IMG/VR virus record: IMGVR_UViG_3300047447_000093
Source of the DNA: a virus
Taxonomy: Duplodnaviria; Heunggongvirae; Uroviricota; Caudoviricetes
Direction: 5' to 3' (one strand)
Length of the DNA: 23,877 bases
The notes under the pieces were generated by a model, which had not been told where the DNA came from, searched no databases, and saw only the letters and a program-made list of their open reading frames with translations. Positions 1-10,768 of this stretch are shown here, one piece after another. Within the stretch, counting starts at the first letter, position 1. The number at the start of each line of letters is the position of its first letter. The position numbers and the translations under genes are program-made.

Positions 1-64
1 CATCAAGTGGCTCTCGCCAATCAGGGAGCCAATATTGAATAGCACGAGAGCCAATGAGTAGCAT
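1..64 (-). CDS. N-terminus of a putative pol-beta-type nucleotidyltransferase-like phage protein (runs off the window)
   Basis: ATG at 64-62 with AAAGGA RBS. Translates MLLIGSRAIQYWLPDWREPLD, matching the hG[GS]...DxD start of the NTase fold. Only 21 codons are visible. Confidence 0.55.
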   Translation of the reverse strand, partial: MLLIGSRAIQYWLPDWREPLD

Positions 65-77
65 TATTTTCCTTTAA

Positions 78-341
78 TTAACAATCGTAAGAAGAACTGT
101 TCCAATCGGGATGCATAGAGTCAATTGCTTCAATTTCACTCTCAAACACACCGTAAGAGCCACCAATCTTAACTTCAGCACCAGACAGTTCAACAACCTC
201 TTTAATCTCTTTCAGAATCATTTTGATTGCTGCCACCTTTTCAGCTACAAGTTTAGTGCCAACTTGTTTCGTCATAGGCACTTGAACAGAAGCTTTCAGC
301 AGTTCTTCAAATTTAGCACGAGAAATAGTTACAGTAGTCAT
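78..341 (-). CDS. Small protein ending WNSSSYDC (W-x-x-S-S..C family, copy 4)
   Basis: 87-aa ORF, AAAGGA RBS, C-terminal motif shared with three neighbours. Confidence 0.9.
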   Translation of the reverse strand: MTTVTISRAKFEELLKASVQVPMTKQVGTKLVAEKVAAIKMILKEIKEVVELSGAEVKIGGSYGVFESEIEAIDSMHPDWNSSSYDC

Positions 342-358
342 TTGTTTATTCCTTTATT

Positions 359-541
359 TTAGCAAGAAGAATAGTTCCAGTCAATCCAGTCACCCGTCAC
401 ATCTTCATATAGGTTCTGCATCGCACTGTCAAAATCAAAGTAGACGTTGTTACTATCGGCCAATTCTTTAGCAGAATTCAGCAGGTTCTTTGCATCTTCA
501 ATTTGTTGTGCAATTAGAGCCAGAATTTCTTGTTGAGTCAT
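359..541 (-). CDS. Small acidic protein ending WNYSSC (family copy 3)
   Basis: 60-aa ORF, AAAGGA RBS, shared motif. Confidence 0.9.
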   Translation of the reverse strand: MTQQEILALIAQQIEDAKNLLNSAKELADSNNVYFDFDSAMQNLYEDVTGDWIDWNYSSC

Positions 542-557
542 TTTAGTTTCCTTTATA

Positions 558-1001
558 TTAACAAGTGGATTGATGCCAGTTACGGGATTTATATTCCATC
601 TCTTCTAGTTTGCCGAACATTGTACTATTATCATCAATCAGTTCAAACAACTCTTGTCCGTTGTCACAAGATTCAAACTGATAGAAATAACCATCACTAG
701 ACCAATCAGTGTTATATGTCAGATAGTATGATACACCACTAATACCTGAAACAATATCGGCAAGTGTCAAGGCTTCAGCAGCCTCTTTAGCTTTTGCAAT
801 AATAATAGACTTTTCTTCTTCTGTGTATGGTTCTTCATCATCACTAGAGAAAGCCAACAGTTCATCCATATTACCTGTAGCTGTCTTGATGGCTTCTGCA
901 ATAATTTTGTTAGCATCCTTACGAACAGCCTCTTGTACCTTCTTCAGTTCTTCCAGCGTATAACCACCAATGACAATTGCATTAACATTGTTGTTGCTCA
1001 T
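558..1001 (-). CDS. Acidic protein ending WHQSTC (family copy 2)
   Basis: 147-aa ORF, AAGGAG RBS, shared motif. Confidence 0.9.
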   Translation of the reverse strand: MSNNNVNAIVIGGYTLEELKKVQEAVRKDANKIIAEAIKTATGNMDELLAFSSDDEEPYTEEEKSIIIAKAKEAAEALTLADIVSGISGVSYYLTYNTDWSSDGYFYQFESCDNGQELFELIDDNSTMFGKLEEMEYKSRNWHQSTC

Positions 1002-1014
1002 ATTTTCTCCTTAA

Positions 1015-1200
1015 TTAGCAGCTTTGGCTCGACGCAAACCATTCGCCCTCTGTACCATCATAAGTTCCGCCCATAACATACGTAGGTGTAATGTGGAAAC
1101 TCAGATTGTGTTCCATTGCAAAAGATTCTGCTTTGCTCAGTGCTGCCTCAAATTCACTTACCAATACTGTCAGTTGTGCGTTCAGTTCTTTCTTGCTCAT
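1015..1200 (-). CDS. Small protein ending WFASSQSC (family copy 1)
   Basis: 61-aa ORF coupled to the upstream gene (1-nt gap), shared motif. Confidence 0.9.
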   Translation of the reverse strand: MSKKELNAQLTVLVSEFEAALSKAESFAMEHNLSFHITPTYVMGGTYDGTEGEWFASSQSC

Positions 1201-1201
1201 T

Positions 1202-1567
1202 TTACAGTTCCTTATAATGTTTACGAATCACTTTTGCAATTTGTTTGAAAGTCCATTCTGCCTCATCGTTCAAATCAATCAGACTAACGGCATAAGGGAG
1301 TTCTTTAATCAAACCACGAGGGAATTTACCTGAGGCAGAATCCATACCTACCCATTCCCTCACTTCAAATGGAAGTTCATTTTCTTCTCCCATATATTCA
1401 AACATACTCGTTTGTTCAGCAGCGATTTCAGGATGCTCTTGTGCATGAATGTTGCACAGGACACCAAGGCAGCAGAAACGATCCATGTTACGAAGTTCAC
1501 CCCTTGTTTGTTGATACTCGCCACTCTCTAAAGCTTTTGCCCATTTACGAGCAATAGAACGTTTCAT
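1202..1567 (-). CDS. Conserved phage hypothetical protein (W..AL.SG.Y.Q...FCCLGVLC type)
   Basis: 121-aa ORF, ATGA overlap with the upstream gene, motif familiar from phage proteins. Confidence 0.85.
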   Translation of the reverse strand: MKRSIARKWAKALESGEYQQTRGELRNMDRFCCLGVLCNIHAQEHPEIAAEQTSMFEYMGEENELPFEVREWVGMDSASGKFPRGLIKELPYAVSLIDLNDEAEWTFKQIAKVIRKHYKEL

Positions 1568-1977
1568 GTTTCCTCCATGTAAAATTTATGTAAACCAATT
1601 GTACGACGATGTTTAAACTTCTTATTCCACTCAGGATGTTTGTCCAACCTATGAAAATGAGTACATCCTCTACAGACAGGAGACATTCTAAACAACTCTT
1701 CCCATCCTGTCAAGCTCTTTGTTTCAAGAATATTCTGCCATGTGAAGTCAGAGAATTGCTTAGGCTGTAGAGCCACAACAGGACAACTCTTGTTTGTACG
1801 TTTCATACGCTCTAGAACAACGTCTAAGACAGCACGCTTCCCTGCTAAAGTCTCTCCTGAAGCCTCATGCTCTACGACAGCTTTCAAACAAGTAATGTCA
1901 GAGACAGCGAAGCTCCTAGAGGGATTGTCTACGTTAATACAAACAAAGAACAGAAGAAGGCTCCACAGCCATTTCAA
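1564..1977 (-). CDS. SleB-like cell wall hydrolase (Hydrolase_2) with N-terminal signal or hydrophobic segment
   Basis: CL..VV.HEASGE...GKRAV..VVL.R, ALQPKQFS and HFH...P.W...IG.HKFY motifs; hydrophobic N-terminus. Confidence 0.85.
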   Translation of the reverse strand: MKWLWSLLLFFVCINVDNPSRSFAVSDITCLKAVVEHEASGETLAGKRAVLDVVLERMKRTNKSCPVVALQPKQFSDFTWQNILETKSLTGWEELFRMSPVCRGCTHFHRLDKHPEWNKKFKHRRTIGLHKFYMEET

Positions 1978-3198: not shown

Positions 3199-3201
3199 GC
3201 A

Positions 3202-3230
3202 CAAAAAGAAAAAGGCTCCCGAAGGAGCCT
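3202..3230 (-). terminator. Intrinsic terminator of the beta-helix gene
   Basis: Minus strand AGGCTCC-TTCG-GGAGCCT followed by a T tract. The hairpin is identical to the one at 6237-6254. Confidence 0.9.
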
Positions 3231-3243
3231 AAAAGCATGCTTT

Positions 3244-4776
3244 TTATGTTATTTGTAGAAGTGTTGTTGGCAAACCTACAATCAAACTAACAAGTTCTGC
3301 GTCTAACCCTGAGAGGGCAGCACTCTTGTATACAGCATCATGCACTGTAGAAGTGTATTGCTTACTCCTAGAACCTAGTGTATGATTTTGGCTGTTCAGA
3401 GACAAGCCAGAGTAAACGTTAAACTGCTCCTTAGTCCATGCTACAGGGCCAGTGGTTGCATTTTTAACTTTGTACCCTGTGCCAGAGAACATATTGTTCA
3501 TACAGATAACGTTGTTCAAAAGTGATGCTGTAGAGGTAGTTTGGATAGCTGCATCTGTTATACCGATGAATACATTGTTGAAAACCTTGTTGTCACAAGC
3601 GCCTGCTGTATCTCCTAAGAAGAATCCTGTTTTCATTGTGACAAACTGATTGCCGTATATGTAATTGTTTGTGCATTTGCCAAGAATCATGACACCACAA
3701 CCACTATTGAATACACCAGCCTTACCTACAATATTGCTAATTTTGTTTCTACGTACAATTGTGTTCTTTGTTCCAATGTCTAACAGAATTCCGTTAGCAT
3801 CAATTGTACTTGTGTAGAATGTATCACCTACATTGTCTTGAATGATATACCTACCGTAGAAGCTATCTACGAATCCTGTTGGCCCTTGTATATTGGAGGC
3901 ATAGTTATCGGAGATGATGTTGTCACCGAATGTTGTATAGCTATATGACAGAGCAAAACCCCAAACACCGATACAACCGCCAAAGATGTCTGTTGGTGAT
4001 TCAAGTCCATTAAGGAACTTATTCCCTTTGATTTGGCACCCTTGCGCTTGGTATGCTTGGCCTGTTGTACCGGGGCAGGTAAGTTCGATAGCACATCCCC
4101 TATAGTTATTGAAGGTATTATAATTAATCTTAATATCTGCCATATACGCGGCAGAATTACTATCAGTTTGTGTGCGGAACTCAATAACAGAACGATTAGC
4201 AGCATTCGTGAATGTATTCCCCTCAATGGTACACCGAAGCATGCTAGAGTTAGCAGCACTTTGAACCCACCACCTCAAAGCTGCATGATTTGTAGAGCCT
4301 CCTGCTGTCGTGTTGAAAGTGTTTCCACGAATCTCAATGTCAGAGTGTGTATCACCAGAAGCAGAGAAGCGGATAGCAGATGTACCACCTGGAGTATCAA
4401 AGATGTTGCCAATGTAACGAGAACCCCAAGCAGCACCGTTGTGTGTAACAGCGGCAAGGGATTGGAAAAACATAATATTTGTACCAGTTCTTCCATTTGT
4501 TAGAGTGTTAGTAAGTGTAGGTGAAAATACGATACTACCAACAGACGGGGCGTAGTCACCACGAATTGTGCAAGGTGTTGTTACACTTCCTCCGTGTGCT
4601 CCTACAGAGATACCTGCTGCATAGGTGTGTACTCCGCAAACATAGAGGTCATCCCCACCTTTAACGCCAGAGGCTCCCCATACAATCTCACTCCATCCAC
4701 CCCATGCATTGGCGTAAGAAGTTCCGTTCCTTGTGCCTGAATGACTTGTATCAGGTCTTACATACCACGTAGCCAT
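3244..4776 (-). CDS. Right-handed parallel beta-helix (pectin lyase-like) protein, putative polysaccharide depolymerase, 510 aa
   Basis: Start MATWYVRPD..G..NGTS.ANAW with GAGG RBS. Repeated I.GN.F / I.DN / I.GN rungs; Asn/Gly/Thr-rich. Confidence 0.75.
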   Translation of the reverse strand: MATWYVRPDTSHSGTRNGTSYANAWGGWSEIVWGASGVKGGDDLYVCGVHTYAAGISVGAHGGSVTTPCTIRGDYAPSVGSIVFSPTLTNTLTNGRTGTNIMFFQSLAAVTHNGAAWGSRYIGNIFDTPGGTSAIRFSASGDTHSDIEIRGNTFNTTAGGSTNHAALRWWVQSAANSSMLRCTIEGNTFTNAANRSVIEFRTQTDSNSAAYMADIKINYNTFNNYRGCAIELTCPGTTGQAYQAQGCQIKGNKFLNGLESPTDIFGGCIGVWGFALSYSYTTFGDNIISDNYASNIQGPTGFVDSFYGRYIIQDNVGDTFYTSTIDANGILLDIGTKNTIVRRNKISNIVGKAGVFNSGCGVMILGKCTNNYIYGNQFVTMKTGFFLGDTAGACDNKVFNNVFIGITDAAIQTTSTASLLNNVICMNNMFSGTGYKVKNATTGPVAWTKEQFNVYSGLSLNSQNHTLGSRSKQYTSTVHDAVYKSAALSGLDAELVSLIVGLPTTLLQIT

Positions 4777-4810
4777 TGTAAAAATCCTCATAAACGTTTA
4801 TAGAAAGTGC

Positions 4811-5802: not shown

Positions 5803-5864
5803 CAAATTAAATATTGAGGATTGCATAACTGAAGTTACGCTGTATCTAATGAAAGTGAGAAGAA

Positions 5865-6224
5865 ATGACATGTGAAAAATGCGGAAGCTCAGGGCTTCAC
5901 GCTTGCCCCGGAGAGTCTGTTGAGTGGACAGAGGAGAAGATTCAGGAATTTATTGAAGCACTTAAGAAATATGAATTTGAAGCAAACGCTGGCCCCTCTC
6001 AGGGAGACATGCCCTTAGATAGATATGTGAAAAGTTTACCTCTCCCAAGCTACGAAACACTCAACAGTGAAAGTGTCAATGTCCCACAAGGATTGTCTAA
6101 GGAAGAAACTAGAGAATTCATCCTAGCTGTTGCCAAAAAAGAGACAGACAAAGATAATTGTCCAAAGTGCCACAAGCCGTGGCTAGATCATGAATTCGGG
6201 GTTCCTGCTCCCTTCTGTCCATAA
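5865..6224 (+). CDS. Hypothetical protein with CxxC motifs at both termini
   Basis: MTCEKCG..LHACPG at the N-terminus and CPKCH...FCP at the C-terminus; followed by a terminator. Confidence 0.8.
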   Translation: MTCEKCGSSGLHACPGESVEWTEEKIQEFIEALKKYEFEANAGPSQGDMPLDRYVKSLPLPSYETLNSESVNVPQGLSKEETREFILAVAKKETDKDNCPKCHKPWLDHEFGVPAPFCP

Positions 6225-6236
6225 CGCTCTATATAG

Positions 6237-6263
6237 AGGCTCCTTCGGGAGCCTTTTTCTTTT
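6237..6263 (+). terminator. Intrinsic terminator
   Basis: AGGCTCC-TTCG-GGAGCCT-TTTTCTTTT. Confidence 0.95.
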
Positions 6264-6339
6264 GCCCTCACTTTGTTTCCTCCTGTCATTGTTTTGCACA
6301 CATTCTTTCTTGAAAGTCAATACACTTTGCAAAATTTTC

Positions 6340-6368
6340 TTGACACATCAATCGTGTGTACTTATAGT
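6340..6368 (+). promoter_or_regulatory. sigma70 promoter
   Basis: TTGACA-17-TATAGT. Confidence 0.9.
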
Positions 6369-6443
6369 GAACACATGCACAACGTATTGATGTGCAAGCC
6401 TGTTAAAAAACTCAACTTTGTACAACTGCTAAGGAGAATTAAA

Positions 6444-7001
6444 ATGAACGCTCAAAACACCATCATGAAAGCTATCCCTTCTGTGATTGCTCGCTTCATT
6501 CCTGCCACTGGCAAGCCTAGCGTTTTCTTGGCTGATGAGATTCCGGGTAACACTGCCCGTATGTTCACGGACGGCGTACTGAAAGAAGTGCCGATTGAGT
6601 TTTACAAAGACACTCTGCCACTGAACGAATCGGACACTCACATTGCTGTCGAAGAATACAAGAAGTTTGCTGGAGTGGAAATGGTAAATATCCGTCAGCG
6701 TATGCCTTACACAAAGCTCAAATCACTTGCCTCTCGCCTTTCCGTAACCCCTGAAGCCATGCACAAGATTGTTGAAGAGGTTCCGAAGGAACAGAAAGAA
6801 GTGCTGAATCACATGGCTGAAAAGGAGGCTTTGATTACCCCTCGTCAACGGGCTGCTCGGGAACGCTACGCCCGAGAGAACGCTGTTAGTGTTATGAAGC
6901 ATATCAAAGAATTGCCTGAGAATGCAAGTCAAGCTGACAAGGAAAAAGCTGTGGAGGATTTGGGTAAAGCCATGGCTCGGGTTATTGCGGGGTTGCTGTA
7001 A
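6444..7001 (+). CDS. Monocistronic hypothetical protein, 185 aa
   Basis: ATG 6444 after AAGGAG; has its own promoter and terminator; CTG/CGT/GCT-biased codons. Confidence 0.9.
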   Translation: MNAQNTIMKAIPSVIARFIPATGKPSVFLADEIPGNTARMFTDGVLKEVPIEFYKDTLPLNESDTHIAVEEYKKFAGVEMVNIRQRMPYTKLKSLASRLSVTPEAMHKIVEEVPKEQKEVLNHMAEKEALITPRQRAARERYARENAVSVMKHIKELPENASQADKEKAVEDLGKAMARVIAGLL

Positions 7002-7017
7002 GGACGTAGTTAGGAAA

Positions 7018-7044
7018 GGCCCTCTTCGGAGGGCCATTCTTTTG
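7018..7044 (+). terminator. Intrinsic terminator
   Basis: GGCCCTC-TTCG-GAGGGCC-ATTCTTTTG. Confidence 0.85.
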
Positions 7045-7074
7045 TTGACACCTTGTTTGTTCATATTGTAGAAT
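7045..7074 (+). promoter_or_regulatory. sigma70 promoter
   Basis: TTGACA-18-TAGAAT; 12-bp inverted repeat around the -10. Confidence 0.75.
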
Positions 7075-7104
7075 GAAGATATTGAACAAACAAGAGGAGA
7101 ATAG

Positions 7105-7272
7105 ATGTATAGATTAGTGCAACAAATGGAGGATGGTTTTGCAACACCTTTAAGCATCGACGGCCTACGAATCGTTTGCTCAGACATCAACTACCCTGAG
7201 ACAATAGAATGGTTACAACAAGTGCAAGAAAAGAACATTGGAATAACTATCTTTTGGGAGCTAATAACATGA
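7105..7272 (+). CDS. Hypothetical protein, 55 aa (below the ORF-track cutoff)
   Basis: GAGGAG RBS; MYRLVQQMEDG...WELIT; ATGA overlap with the next gene. Confidence 0.8.
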   Translation: MYRLVQQMEDGFATPLSIDGLRIVCSDINYPETIEWLQQVQEKNIGITIFWELIT

Positions 7273-7640
7273 AATCCATGAAAGCCATTATTGCAATTGC
7301 TGCTGTTATATCCCTTTCTGCTTGTGCTGTGCAAGCCCCCCGCCCCATAGTGGACATGCAAGGCGTGTCTCCAGAGGTATATGCAAGAGATTATCAGGAT
7401 TGTCAGGCTTATGCAGCACAAGGGGGTGACGAGGGGCAATCCGCCCTCAACTCTGGCATTGCTGGTGGTATTGCTGGTGCAGCAACAGGGGCAATCTTTG
7501 GTAATCGTCACGATGCTGGCAAGTTGGGTTTGTTCACGATGCTTCTGTCTGCCGGGGAGGGTGCTGCCAAGGCTGCACAACATAAGCGTCAGATTCTCTT
7601 TCGTTGCCTTGAAGGGCGGGGATATAGGACTTTAGGATAA
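7269..7640 (+). CDS. Glycine-zipper lipoprotein
   Basis: Signal peptide with LSAC lipobox; RPIVD..GV..Y..D..DC..YA, then GxxxG zipper repeats and C-terminal CL.GRGY. Confidence 0.8.
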   Translation: MKSMKAIIAIAAVISLSACAVQAPRPIVDMQGVSPEVYARDYQDCQAYAAQGGDEGQSALNSGIAGGIAGAATGAIFGNRHDAGKLGLFTMLLSAGEGAAKAAQHKRQILFRCLEGRGYRTLG

Positions 7641-7649
7641 GGGTATTCA

Positions 7650-7868
7650 ATGACTTGTATCAGATTTAACGGAGGAATCCTTTGCGTGAGTCCATTTTAT
7701 CGCCTTCGGCTTGAGGATGGTACGTGTGTGTTCATGGATTGGCACCACTACTGCGGCCCTACGTTCTTCCGTGACAAGTGGGAACGTAGGGTGATTGACA
7801 ATTGGTGGGAAAATGAGCTAATCTGTAAGGCACTAAACTGGTTCCAAAACAGGGGAAATAAAGCATGA
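7650..7868 (+). CDS. Hypothetical phage protein
   Basis: 72-aa ORF in the operon. Confidence 0.85.
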   Translation: MTCIRFNGGILCVSPFYRLRLEDGTCVFMDWHHYCGPTFFRDKWERRVIDNWWENELICKALNWFQNRGNKA

Positions 7869-8059
7869 ATGCAATTACAACAAGCTTGAAAAAGCAACTC
7901 CGTCACACGGAAGACCTCATTAAGAACTTTGAACGCATGTGCGATCAATTCCCTAACAGTGCTGAATACAAGCGCACTTTGATGGAATTGCAAGGTGATA
8001 GGGTAGCTATTATTGATAAAATGCTTCTGCAAGCGAAGCAGAATAAGGGGGAAAAGTGA
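7865..8059 (+). CDS. Hypothetical protein
   Basis: 64 aa, ATGA overlap. Confidence 0.8.
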   Translation: MNAITTSLKKQLRHTEDLIKNFERMCDQFPNSAEYKRTLMELQGDRVAIIDKMLLQAKQNKGEK

Positions 8060-8325
8060 AATATTATAAAGGTGATTTAGTAGTAAATGAACAGCGTTTT
8101 GGTGACGTTTGGACATCACGCATCGATACAATCTCCGAACATGGTCATGTGTGGAATGGACGTATTCAGATTTATGGAGAGTCACAAGAGGAAGTGGAAA
8201 AGCTTCGTGATGAGTTTTTGAACCTTCGTCAACAACTGGAAGCAGCTAACAAGCTCATTGCACACATGCGAGAAGAAGCTATTGAGGCAAGCTGGAGGCT
8301 TAATCCTGAAAGGATGGGGCAATAA
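8056..8325 (+). CDS. Hypothetical protein
   Basis: 89 aa, GTGA overlap, GGGG RBS. Confidence 0.8.
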   Translation: MKYYKGDLVVNEQRFGDVWTSRIDTISEHGHVWNGRIQIYGESQEEVEKLRDEFLNLRQQLEAANKLIAHMREEAIEASWRLNPERMGQ

Positions 8326-8555
8326 TGGGCCTTCACAAACTTAAACCAAATGAATCATTCTGCTGCAACAATGGTTGTGGAGTGTGTGATGCTTTGAGAA
8401 TTTGGGACACATATTCTGAATCCATTTCTCCCTGTGGCACTCTGCGAGAAACAAAAGATCAACTCATTCATGTTAGCACATGCTGCCGTATAGGTGTATT
8501 TGTGTGGGACAATGAGAAGGATGAGGAAACCCCTTACAGGATGGATGATGAATAA
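8325..8555 (+). CDS. Cys-rich hypothetical protein
   Basis: 76 aa, TAATG coupling, CC..GCG.C and CC motifs. Confidence 0.75.
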   Translation: MGLHKLKPNESFCCNNGCGVCDALRIWDTYSESISPCGTLRETKDQLIHVSTCCRIGVFVWDNEKDEETPYRMDDE

Positions 8556-8703
8556 AACTGAATGGATGTATAAATATCATCTTGAAGAACTTGTTAAAGC
8601 TCTCGACAATGCTTTCATTTCTTCTTGGCAGTCTACTGCTGCTTGGCAACAACAACTAGAGGCAGCAAAAGAATTCCTTGCACACAAAGCAAAAACAGAG
8701 TAG
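8548..8703 (+). CDS. Hypothetical protein, about 51 aa
   Basis: Start refined to the ATG overlapping the previous stop. Confidence 0.7.
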   Translation: MNKTEWMYKYHLEELVKALDNAFISSWQSTAAWQQQLEAAKEFLAHKAKTE

Positions 8704-8706
8704 AAT
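8678..8706 (+). promoter_or_regulatory. sigma70 promoter for the 667-aa/132-aa pair
   Basis: TTGCAC-17-TAGAAT. Confidence 0.65.
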
Positions 8707-8764
8707 TCATCTCACTGTAACAATTTACGAAGTAAAACAATCCCTCTAAAACAGGAGCTATACA

Positions 8765-10768
8765 ATGTCTGACTTTAAGCCGTTTTCTCAAGCTGTACAC
8801 AAGCAATTCTCTGAAATGTCTAAACACGAACTGTTCGTTGTGGACGTATCCGGGGACGACCTCTTTGCTGCCTATCTGGCTGCATTCCCTGAAGGCACCA
8901 ACCCAATCTACCGTGAGCGCACTGAGCACGATTGCTCTTGCTGCAAAAATTTCATTCGTAATATTGGCAATGTTGTTACTGTTGTTTATGGTAAGGTTGT
9001 CACTGTGTGGGACAATGTTACCACTGGTGATGAATATGAAGTAGTGGCTGCTGCTCTAGCAGAAATCGTCAGCAAAGCTCCAATTAAATCCCTCTTCCGT
9101 GCATCTGAAAAGCAATACGGTGCAGAATCCACTGTCGAACTGAAAGACGGTGTTACGAAGCGCTGGAATCACTTCCACGGACAGATTGCCAACAAGCATT
9201 ACACGAAGGAAGTAGGCTCTGTCGTAGGTGAATACAACACGTCTGTGAGCGTCTTTAAGCGTGGCTTGGATGAACTCACTCCAGAAGCATTTGCTACTGT
9301 CATCGACCTGACCAATCAGAACAATCTTTACAAAGGAAATGATTTCCTTGCTTCTGTGACTTCTTTCTCTAAAGCACAGCAAGAATACAACAAACTGAGC
9401 GCACAAGAAAAGAATAATTATATTTGGCAGAATGCTGGCAATATGGCCCTGTCCCGCTTTCGTAACACCGCCATTGGCACCCTTCTGGTTGATCTGTCTG
9501 CTGGTGTGGACATTGAAGGCGCTGTAAAATCGTTTGAACAGAAAGTAGCTCCAACTAACTACAAACGTCCTAATGCTCTCATCACTCAGAAAATGGTTGA
9601 TGATGCAATGAAAACTATCGATTCTCTGGGTCTGGAGCCTGCTCTGGAACGGCGACATGCCACGCTGGAAGATGTTTCTGTCAATGACATCCTCTTCGTG
9701 GACAACAATGTTCGTGGTAAGCTGAAGGGCGGCGTGGCTAACGTTCTGGCTGATGCTGTTGCACCTGTTGAAGTGAAAGAAAGCAAAGCTCAAGAAATTA
9801 ATGTAGATGACTTCCTGAAGAACGTTGTTCCCGGTGCTAAGAGTATTGATGTTCATGTGAAAAATCAGCATCAAGCTAATTTTGTCAGCATCACGGCTCC
9901 TGTGCATGAGGAAGTGGAGCCTCTGTTCAAATGGGATAATAATTTTGCTTGGAGCTATGACGGCAATGTGACAGATAGTATCAAAGAACGTGTGAAGGCT
10001 CAGGGCGGTATTACGGATGCAAAATTCCGTGTGTCTCTGGCATGGTATAACAAAGACGATTTGGATTTGTATATCAAAGAACCTGATGGCTATCAAATCT
10101 ACTTTGGTAACAAAGGCGTGCGTAGCAAGAACACTGGTATGCTGGATGTGGACATGAATGCTTATGGCCCACACAGCGATACAGAGCCTGTGGAAAACGT
10201 TGTGTGGAGCCGCCCTATGGATGGGCAGTATGTTGTCACTGTAAACAATTACAATCAACGTACTACTGTCAATCCCGGCTTTACGCTTGAAGTGGAGTCG
10301 GATGGTATTGTGCATCAGTATAGCACTCCCACCTCTCCGCGCAGTGGAAACAACAAACATGCTTTGACTATCACTGTAAAGGGTGGTAAAGTGGTTGACA
10401 TCAAACCAACTCAAGGTGTTGTTGGTGGTGCATTCAGCCAAGAGAAATGGAACATTGAAACTGAAAAGTTTGTACGTGTCAACACCATGATGCTGTCTCC
10501 GAATCACTGGAATGGTAAGGAAATTGGCAGCAAACACGTATTCTTTGCTCTGGAAGGTTGTAAAAATCCTGTTCCAACGCGGGGCATTTACAATGAATTC
10601 CTGAAGGGCGACTTAGAGAAGCATCGTAAAGTATTTGAATTGTTGGGGCAGAAAACTATGTGCCAGCCTTCTGAGAAACAGATTAGCGGATTGGGTTTTA
10701 CGTCTGCTCGTGGTGATAGTGTTGTAGTGAAAGTGAATAATCAAAAGTTGTATAACGTTAAATTTTAA
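8765..10768 (+). CDS. Large conserved phage protein with N-terminal HDCSCC motif and a YfaP/DUF2135-like domain
   Basis: 667 aa; EHDCSCCKNFIRNIG, WNHFHG, RVSLAWYNKDDLDLYIKEPDG..IYFGNK...GMLDVDMN..PVEN; strong codon bias. Confidence 0.85.
   Translation: MSDFKPFSQAVHKQFSEMSKHELFVVDVSGDDLFAAYLAAFPEGTNPIYRERTEHDCSCCKNFIRNIGNVVTVVYGKVVTVWDNVTTGDEYEVVAAALAEIVSKAPIKSLFRASEKQYGAESTVELKDGVTKRWNHFHGQIANKHYTKEVGSVVGEYNTSVSVFKRGLDELTPEAFATVIDLTNQNNLYKGNDFLASVTSFSKAQQEYNKLSAQEKNNYIWQNAGNMALSRFRNTAIGTLLVDLSAGVDIEGAVKSFEQKVAPTNYKRPNALITQKMVDDAMKTIDSLGLEPALERRHATLEDVSVNDILFVDNNVRGKLKGGVANVLADAVAPVEVKESKAQEINVDDFLKNVVPGAKSIDVHVKNQHQANFVSITAPVHEEVEPLFKWDNNFAWSYDGNVTDSIKERVKAQGGITDAKFRVSLAWYNKDDLDLYIKEPDGYQIYFGNKGVRSKNTGMLDVDMNAYGPHSDTEPVENVVWSRPMDGQYVVTVNNYNQRTTVNPGFTLEVESDGIVHQYSTPTSPRSGNNKHALTITVKGGKVVDIKPTQGVVGGAFSQEKWNIETEKFVRVNTMMLSPNHWNGKEIGSKHVFFALEGCKNPVPTRGIYNEFLKGDLEKHRKVFELLGQKTMCQPSEKQISGLGFTSARGDSVVVKVNNQKLYNVKF

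Follow-up and report, generated by a model that had tools for sequence, protein, structure and literature searches.

The window analysed here, the whole 23,877-nucleotide stretch of the IMG/VR virus record IMGVR_UViG_3300047447_000093 (Caudoviricetes), carries at one end an array of four genes for small acidic proteins that terminate in a Trp-Ser-Cys tail, followed by the beginning of a gene for a predicted nucleotidyltransferase (NTase). All five genes lie on the minus strand; the array reads from position 1200 down to position 1, with the tailed genes upstream of the enzyme gene. The features are as follows, with lengths in amino acids (aa) and isoelectric points (pI):

1015..1200, minus strand: A-type tailed protein, 61 aa, pI 4.6; C-terminus GEWFASSQSC; matches phrog_899 (E 1.9e-10)
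558..1001, minus strand: B-type tailed protein, 147 aa, pI 4.25; C-terminus MEYKSRNWHQSTC (tail WHQSTC)
359..541, minus strand: A-type tailed protein, 60 aa, pI 4.05; C-terminus DWIDWNYSSC; matches phrog_899 (E 0.003)
78..341, minus strand: A-type tailed protein, 87 aa, pI 5.1; C-terminus PDWNSSSYDC; matches phrog_899 (E 0.005)
1..66, minus strand: 5' end of the enzyme gene, 21 full codons (MLLIGSRAIQYWLPDWREPLD) and a partial codon; the remainder lies beyond the window

The initial annotation had described four consecutive open reading frames (ORFs) with these lengths and tails, each closed by TAA and followed by a ribosome-binding site. We confirmed this arrangement and assigned it to the minus strand, which had not been given. 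In all four tailed genes a terminal TGC or TGT codon precedes the TAA stop, and within 11–17 nt of each stop come AAGGAG or AAAGGAA and then the ATG of the next gene. Among the 201 window ORFs of at least 40 aa, exactly four end in a match to W..S[ST].{0,2}C$, compared to the ~0.004 expected from residue frequencies. The enzyme fragment inside the window already shows hG[GS] and the first of the catalytic Asp residues (LIGS...PLD).

A family of acidic proteins with an invariant tail

Alignments and BLAST clustering place the four window proteins in one family. Three of them match phrog_899, a family of unknown function, in its C-terminal half, and a Pfam scan of the four gave no family above threshold. 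The weak amphipathic helix that the initial annotation had seen in all four proteins thus reflects true homology, as judged from the phrog_899 matches, the alignments and the clustering. Its further suggestion that conserved tails sit on variable scaffolds did not hold: the four are paralogues within a single helix-plus-hairpin family that comprises two old subtypes. Subtype A, represented in the window at 1015–1200, 359–541 and 78–341, is ~60–90 aa long and has an amphipathic helix, often followed by a YGMGGxY block, and then an acidic linker that leads to the tail. Subtype B, represented at 558–1001, is ~140–160 aa long, with (I/V)I(I/N)GG...ELK at its start and ME..S[RK].W..S.C at the C-terminus.

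Since a word-indexed homologue search with the 61-aa protein returned only 2 proteins, a profile search was needed. A family profile built from 49 members and searched against 1.84 billion representative proteins matched 1516 representative clusters at E ≤1e-3 and 520 at E ≤1e-10. In almost all of the matches listed, the alignment to the profile extends to the final residue. The C-terminal residue is Cys in 146 of the best 150 representatives, and the remaining four are one residue longer. The tail logo reads G-W-x-[SAP]-S-S-x-x-C, and looser tails such as WHSSRC, WNTSYC, GWQPSAGIC and GWEGSAC also occur in the family. Because these looser tails keep only the Trp, the Ser three residues after it (W+3) and the final Cys, 2 to 4 positions past the Ser, we regard these three residues as the true invariants. 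All four window proteins match the profile to their last residue and carry the Trp, the Ser at W+3 and the terminal Cys. The family is acidic (median pI 4.4), and the bodies of paralogues have diverged to 15–30% identity. The small proteins are therefore paralogues of one fold in which the tail is the sole invariant part.

Some members hold a second, internal copy of the tail motif a few residues before the terminal copy, so that the motif behaves as a modular unit. Two-copy members were seen at L014 3184–3827, L051 2548–2769, L074 4754–4984, L077 4729–4971 and L083 4377–4613 (locus handles) and in proteins P0147, P0184 and P0223. Their internal copy has the form W-x-x-S-S-x-C and is often followed by Y-G-E or acidic residues before the terminal copy; the L074 protein has two extra residues after its second copy.

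An AlphaFold2 (AF2) model of the 61-aa protein has an overall confidence (pLDDT) of 84 and predicts a long N-terminal helix (residues 3–30), a loop with a YVMGGTY block and a beta-hairpin (45–48 and 53–56), with the tail as a low-confidence, flexible end. No significant structural relative of the small protein was found; the best PDB match reached Z 4.0, and BFVD returned family members only. Its Protein Atlas neighbours were unnamed viral clusters, all below 0.8. Sequence matches in the PDB were limited to designed helical proteins and were taken as composition effects. With regard to lanthipeptides and other ribosomally synthesized and post-translationally modified peptides (RiPPs), no LanB/LanM/LanKC, LanD or radical SAM enzyme was found among the conserved neighbours at 80 enzyme loci or among the Pfam and PHROG matches of the window, and the small proteins are predicted to be folded domains of 60–150 aa, contrary to the leader-core architecture of RiPPs. 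With regard to MNT-HEPN pairs, in which the partner is a HEPN protein with an Rx4-6H motif, the small proteins gave no HEPN match, and the best structural Z was again 4.0.

The nucleotidyltransferase-fold enzyme

A full-length homologue of the enzyme was retrieved from the nearest record found, a 90,390-bp IMG/VR phage with terminal repeats (G001), which is 78% identical to the region in nucleotide sequence. No GenBank phage matched the region in a megablast search. In G001 the same array is followed by a 304-aa protein whose N-terminus is identical to that encoded in the window (L002 5209–6123). This protein matches Pfam DUF7277 (PF23942) over residues 1–77 and DUF7275 (PF23940) over residues 101–278, as well as phrog_2141; like phrog_899, these are families of unknown function only. 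From the first residues of the gene, the initial annotation had proposed a pol-beta-type NTase, and both the motif and the predicted fold bear this out, with the catalytic residues intact in the full-length protein. Across 45 enzyme homologues, G5, D21, D23, E63, K105, S107, H108, K119 and R145 are invariant, as are H176, D177, H180, E220, E221, E228, R229 and R261; S6 is present in 44/45, and D123 is nearly invariant. The pol-beta signature hG[GS]...Dx[DE] is thereby present, and 80 of the 83 enzyme ORFs collected at IMG/VR loci carry it too. The invariant E63 (E65 is found in 41/45) lies in a predicted strand, 61–66, and is the likely third acidic residue.

The AF2 model of the 304-aa enzyme is of high confidence (pLDDT 92, predicted template modelling score 0.86), and its best PDB match by Foldseek is MenT1 (E 3e-4, probability 1.00). 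In an exhaustive VIA-align comparison against 48,161 chains, the model aligned best with MenT1 (Z 10.1), MenT3/TglT (9.6), ANT(2'')-Ia (9.3), MenT4 (9.1), a fungal NTase-like protein (8.6), LnuA (8.5), TM1012 (8.3) and JHP933 (8.0); after these eight NTases, unrelated chains followed at 5.4 and below. Language-model neighbours of the enzyme belong to AbiEii, DUF2204, DUF6036 and Aminoglyc_resit clusters, which we treat as a lead only. PF08843 (DUF1814) gave no match, as a Pfam hmmscan at E ≤1 returned DUF7275, DUF7277 and one spurious family only, and the enzyme profile found nothing among PDB sequences at E ≤10. The arrangement H108...H176-D177 could be read as that of an HD phosphohydrolase, but neither Foldseek nor the exhaustive alignment placed an HD-domain structure among the fold matches. 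From its conserved residues and modelled fold, the enzyme is a credible active nucleotidyltransferase of the MenT/ANT/Lnu branch of the pol-beta fold, and at the sequence level it falls outside DUF1814.

The enzyme is encoded by 685 phage records in GenBank, among them T4-like phages of E. coli, Klebsiella, Acinetobacter and Aeromonas, Phapecoctavirus, ~90-kb Pseudomonas-type phages and a Ralstonia jumbo phage. In two IMG/VR loci (L125 10574–11402 and L133 1360–2188) the enzyme gene is broken into three consecutive ORFs, which may reflect frameshifts, sequencing errors or a decaying copy.

The closest comparison is with the MenAT1 and MenT/AbiEii (DUF1814) toxin-antitoxin (TA) systems, whose NTases likewise have a bilobed pol-beta fold (Z 10.1, 9.6 and 9.1 to MenT1, MenT3 and MenT4, respectively). 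The main rival to the interpretation developed below is a MenAT-like form of regulation. Here, the enzyme would transfer nucleotides to tRNA 3' ends or other RNA, in host takeover or tRNA handling, and the small proteins would be inhibitors or regulators whose tail plugs or reshapes the active site. In agreement with this, MenT1 is the top structural match and MenT3 and MenT4 follow closely. The gene order and tight spacing also resemble those of the menT1 locus, where menT1 likewise lies downstream of a short ORF whose 68-aa product, MenA1, blocks the MenT1 active site (PMC7450476, PMC10435456). Acidic small proteins, at pI ~4.4, could moreover mimic a nucleic-acid substrate. The MenT/AbiEii enzymes have a conserved Lys/Asp pair in the helical lobe (motif III Lys and motif IV Asp: K137/D152 in MenT1, K189/D211 in MenT3), and the phage enzyme offers K105, K119 and D123, in helices 98–106 and 117–129, as candidates by position only.

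At 12/60 IMG/VR loci the enzyme has tRNA genes within 5 kb, and such genes also lie beside a distant homologue in Gordonia phage Norvs (L217), where the enzyme gene at 3792–4583 is ~1.2 kb upstream of a tRNA array at 5833–8051. This proximity hints weakly at a core function related to tRNA, but could be due to chance in tRNA-rich phages.

Other features set the phage enzyme apart from the MenT/AbiEii group, and the first three of them speak against regulation of the MenAT kind. There is no Pfam AbiEii match. At position 19, where MenT enzymes carry their phospho-acceptor Ser/Thr (two residues ahead of the first Asp), 29/45 homologues have Pro and just 4 have Thr. The enzyme has a pI of ~6 and is not basic, and it possesses an additional conserved DUF7275 set (H108, H176, D177, H180, E220 and E221). 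Its partners are acidic, Cys-tailed and multi-copy, and their family is unrelated to MenA1/MazE; the genes reside on large phages, of which the T4-like and jumbo ones are lytic types, rather than in chromosomal TA loci.

Linkage of the tailed genes to the enzyme gene

The initial annotation had proposed to test whether the tailed genes co-occur with, and lie next to, the NTase-like gene across genomes, and the outcome was strongly positive in both directions, although the forward and reverse sets share some contigs and are not fully independent. In the forward direction, 80 IMG/VR loci, each built around the enzyme gene, contained 130 ORFs with a strict tail on the enzyme's strand, compared to 0 of 4786 ORFs on the opposite strand. 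At least one same-strand tailed gene was present in 65/80 loci; of the 15 loci without a strict tail, three have almost no upstream DNA and several more carry variant tails, such as WLPSSWESC and SWEASDC. Nearly all tailed genes are located within 2.5 kb upstream of the enzyme, with one to five paralogues per phage. When same-strand ORFs were clustered, the small family was found in 61/80 enzyme loci, followed by a SleB-like hydrolase in 20/80 and other clusters in 14 or fewer. Adjacency of the SleB-like hydrolase probably results from common ancestry of the ~90-kb phage group, and the small family is the sole widely conserved neighbour of the enzyme. The window has a gene of the hydrolase type at 1564–1977 (minus strand), encoding a 137-aa protein with a hydrophobic N-terminus; its matches are to Pfam Hydrolase_2 (E 7.7e-9), a family of SleB-type cell-wall hydrolases, and to endolysin PHROGs.

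Named GenBank phages, unrelated in type, illustrate the spread of this arrangement. Two tailed genes abut the enzyme gene in Ralstonia jumbo phage RsoM2USA, four tailed genes accompany it in E. coli Dhakavirus MX01 and three in Phapecoctavirus tuntematon, and the same arrangement is seen in the Acinetobacter T4-like phages Maestro and AM101 and in Pseudomonas phage Kremar. A B-type gene is also directly upstream of the enzyme gene on a 2.23-Mb JGI contig (L211, enzyme at 8001–8954) and on a 28-kb, bacterial-looking contig (L212). On the former, which is giant-virus-like or may come from an intracellular bacterium, the enzyme neighbours include PTH2, aminoacyl-tRNA synthetase and ankyrin genes; the latter also encodes a chemotaxis receptor, together with a type III restriction-modification pair.

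In the reverse direction, 120 IMG/VR stretches were collected with a DNA pattern for MGGxY...W..SS..C-stop that was blind to the enzyme. A true in-frame family gene was present in 24 of these, and 18 of the 24 had the enzyme on the same strand; the six without it all have <610 bp of downstream DNA. Where at least 3.5 kb of downstream DNA was available, the enzyme was found in 12/12 family loci. The other 96 stretches were chance matches that served as an internal control, and just 2 of them contained the enzyme. No family locus that could be assessed lacked the enzyme.

The converse does occur. A 96%-complete 141-kb record encodes the enzyme and has no family match at E ≤0.01, and no tailed genes were found within ~4 kb of distant enzyme homologues in two actinophages, of Gordonia and Streptomyces. 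Since the enzyme is sometimes alone and no assessable family locus lacks it, the small proteins fit dependants of the enzyme better than an indispensable antitoxin. This further counts against MenAT-like regulation, as a self-toxic enzyme should not tolerate the absence of the family nearby or in a near-complete genome, and we consider that rival unlikely.

That the enzyme can occur alone would also suit an explanation without any direct biochemical link, in which the tail serves a separate purpose (Cys-mediated binding of a metal or cofactor, oligomerization or recognition by a host factor) and the genes are co-regulated early genes that simply travel together; several paralogues have a single Cys per chain, which could form a shared metal site. 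Against such independence stand the adjacency and strand kept across phage lineages that have no other common neighbour, and the presence of the enzyme at every assessable family locus. We regard it as distinctly improbable.

Comparison of near-identical phages showed that single paralogues of the array vary independently of their surroundings. The window and G001 share 96% DNA identity from position 3200 down to 894; no alignment was obtained from 894 to 599, a stretch that takes in the B-type gene from its middle to its end, and the B-type proteins are 41.5% identical. The last A-type gene (78–341) is 33% identical to its G001 counterpart at the protein level. A third phage (L011) combines the last A-type gene of the window (93%) with the B-type gene of G001. 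As the phages compared are otherwise 91–98% identical in DNA, single paralogues appear to be swapped like cassettes, in what looks like recombination within the array. Such swapping suggests selection by the host; it would be unexpected for an antitoxin, as would the presence of one to five diverged paralogues.

Replacement of single paralogues between phages that are 91–98% identical elsewhere is what would be expected of arms-race genes, and raises the possibility that the small proteins are adaptors. The tail would then be a docking peptide only, and each body would bring the NTase to a different host protein, for example one involved in defence, or to a nucleic acid, which would be modified. 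An invariant tail on bodies at 15–30% identity, copy numbers from 1 to 5 and the dependence of the family on the enzyme, and not the reverse, are all consistent with adaptors. On the other hand, an invariant Ser and an obligatory terminal Cys exceed the usual needs of a docking peptide, and the bodies are predicted to have one small fold in common with little obvious binding surface. A purely adaptor role seems unlikely.

With regard to the other genes of the window, a strong terminator-like hairpin at 3213–3230 (minus strand) is followed by eleven closely packed minus-strand genes, with the array at their end. No terminator-like sites were found between these eleven genes, and a promoter scan gave a result no higher than chance. 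The hairpin divides the small-gene operon that holds the array from the gene directly before it (3244–4791, minus strand), which encodes a 515-aa Gly/Asn/Thr-rich protein, possibly a beta-helix tail spike, with no PHROG match. On the plus strand, a 667-aa protein encoded at 8765–10768 matches phrog_1735 over its full length (E 1.7e-248); this phage family of unknown function is large and conserved.

The tail as a candidate recognition or acceptor element

Collectively, our results suggest a conserved two-part phage module made up of an NTase (DUF7277 and DUF7275) and one to five acidic Cys-tailed paralogues. We tentatively favour the view that the tail is the recognition or acceptor element of the enzyme and that the likely acceptor is the Ser hydroxyl at W+3. 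That the enzyme recognizes the tail, presumably by binding it, we infer from the invariant terminal motif, the intact NTase residues and a two-way linkage that outlasts other synteny. The Ser as acceptor is proposed because the MenT branch offers a precedent for transfer onto a Ser/Thr hydroxyl: MenT1 at T39 and MenT3 at S78 undergo auto-phosphorylation in their own active sites (PMC11375011).

In this mechanism, the Trp and the terminal Cys, the latter through its thiol and free carboxylate, would anchor the tail in the enzyme, so that the Ser hydroxyl at W+3 would be placed at the Asp/Asp/Glu catalytic centre and could take up a nucleotidyl or phosphoryl group. Since the spacing from Trp to Ser is constant and that from Ser to Cys is variable, Trp and Ser would set the catalytic register and the terminal Cys would serve as an end-anchor. 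We speculate that the His/Asp/Glu cluster of DUF7275 binds the terminal Cys. The diverse bodies of the paralogues may then direct the modified proteins to different partners in the infected cell.

Pol-beta-fold enzymes can nucleotidylate dedicated partner proteins, encoded by neighbouring genes, on a hydroxyl group. MntA poly-AMPylates HepT in MNT-HEPN systems, GlnE, GlnD and DrrA nucleotidylate proteins, and CitX and MdcG attach a prosthetic group to a Ser of acyl carrier protein. In these systems the acceptors are Tyr, or Ser in an unrelated context, and the partners are HEPN RNases, PII or glutamine synthetase, Rab, and acyl carrier protein, none with a terminal-Cys tail. ANT(2'')-Ia and LnuA resemble the phage enzyme in fold (Z 9.3 and 8.5), and their chemistry is nucleotidylation of a substrate hydroxyl; they differ in being ~160–180 aa long with small-molecule substrates, whereas the phage enzyme has 304 aa, an added helical domain and protein partners. 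More generally, enzymes of this NTase branch transfer onto tRNA or antibiotic hydroxyls.

Several observations weigh against the tail as a recognition or acceptor element. The nearest structural relatives use tRNA 3' ends or small molecules as substrates, not proteins. The small family is missing from some phages that have the enzyme, and an enzyme that can occur alone should have a function independent of the tails. The need for a terminal Cys lacks a mechanistic explanation in this model, and its distance from the Ser varies from 2 to 4 residues. Finally, no fusion of enzyme and tail was found among the 83 enzyme ORFs or, on weak evidence, among longer proteins.

A more far-reaching version of the acceptor model is a new protein modification, in which the enzyme would nucleotidylate Ser(W+3) and the terminal Cys would then react with the activated or eliminated Ser, to form a lanthionine-like or related ring, or pass the nucleotide on. 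We consider this very unlikely. If true, it would define a covalently modified phage effector family, a ribosomal-protein-scale RiPP analogue driven by a pol-beta NTase.

A literature search found no paper on the module or naming its Pfam or PHROG identifiers, and the linkage between tail and enzyme was not recorded there; a paper on RB69 that mentions a nucleotidyltransferase concerns an unrelated sugar-nucleotide enzyme. The module is not described in the passages located in a jumbo-phage survey. A pol-beta NTase with dedicated small partner proteins resembles known arrangements, and it is the chemistry of the tail that could prove categorically new.

The module is widespread (1516 clusters of the small family and 685 GenBank phage records), and both of its halves are still annotated as 'hypothetical'. 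An invariant Trp-Ser-Cys tail that ends a protein and is tied to one enzyme provides a sharply defined hypothesis. Whether the answer is a new modification of proteins or MenAT-type control, in a phage, of an enzyme directed at tRNA, two large families of unknown function would gain a role, and a new route of host takeover or counter-defence would probably also be exposed.

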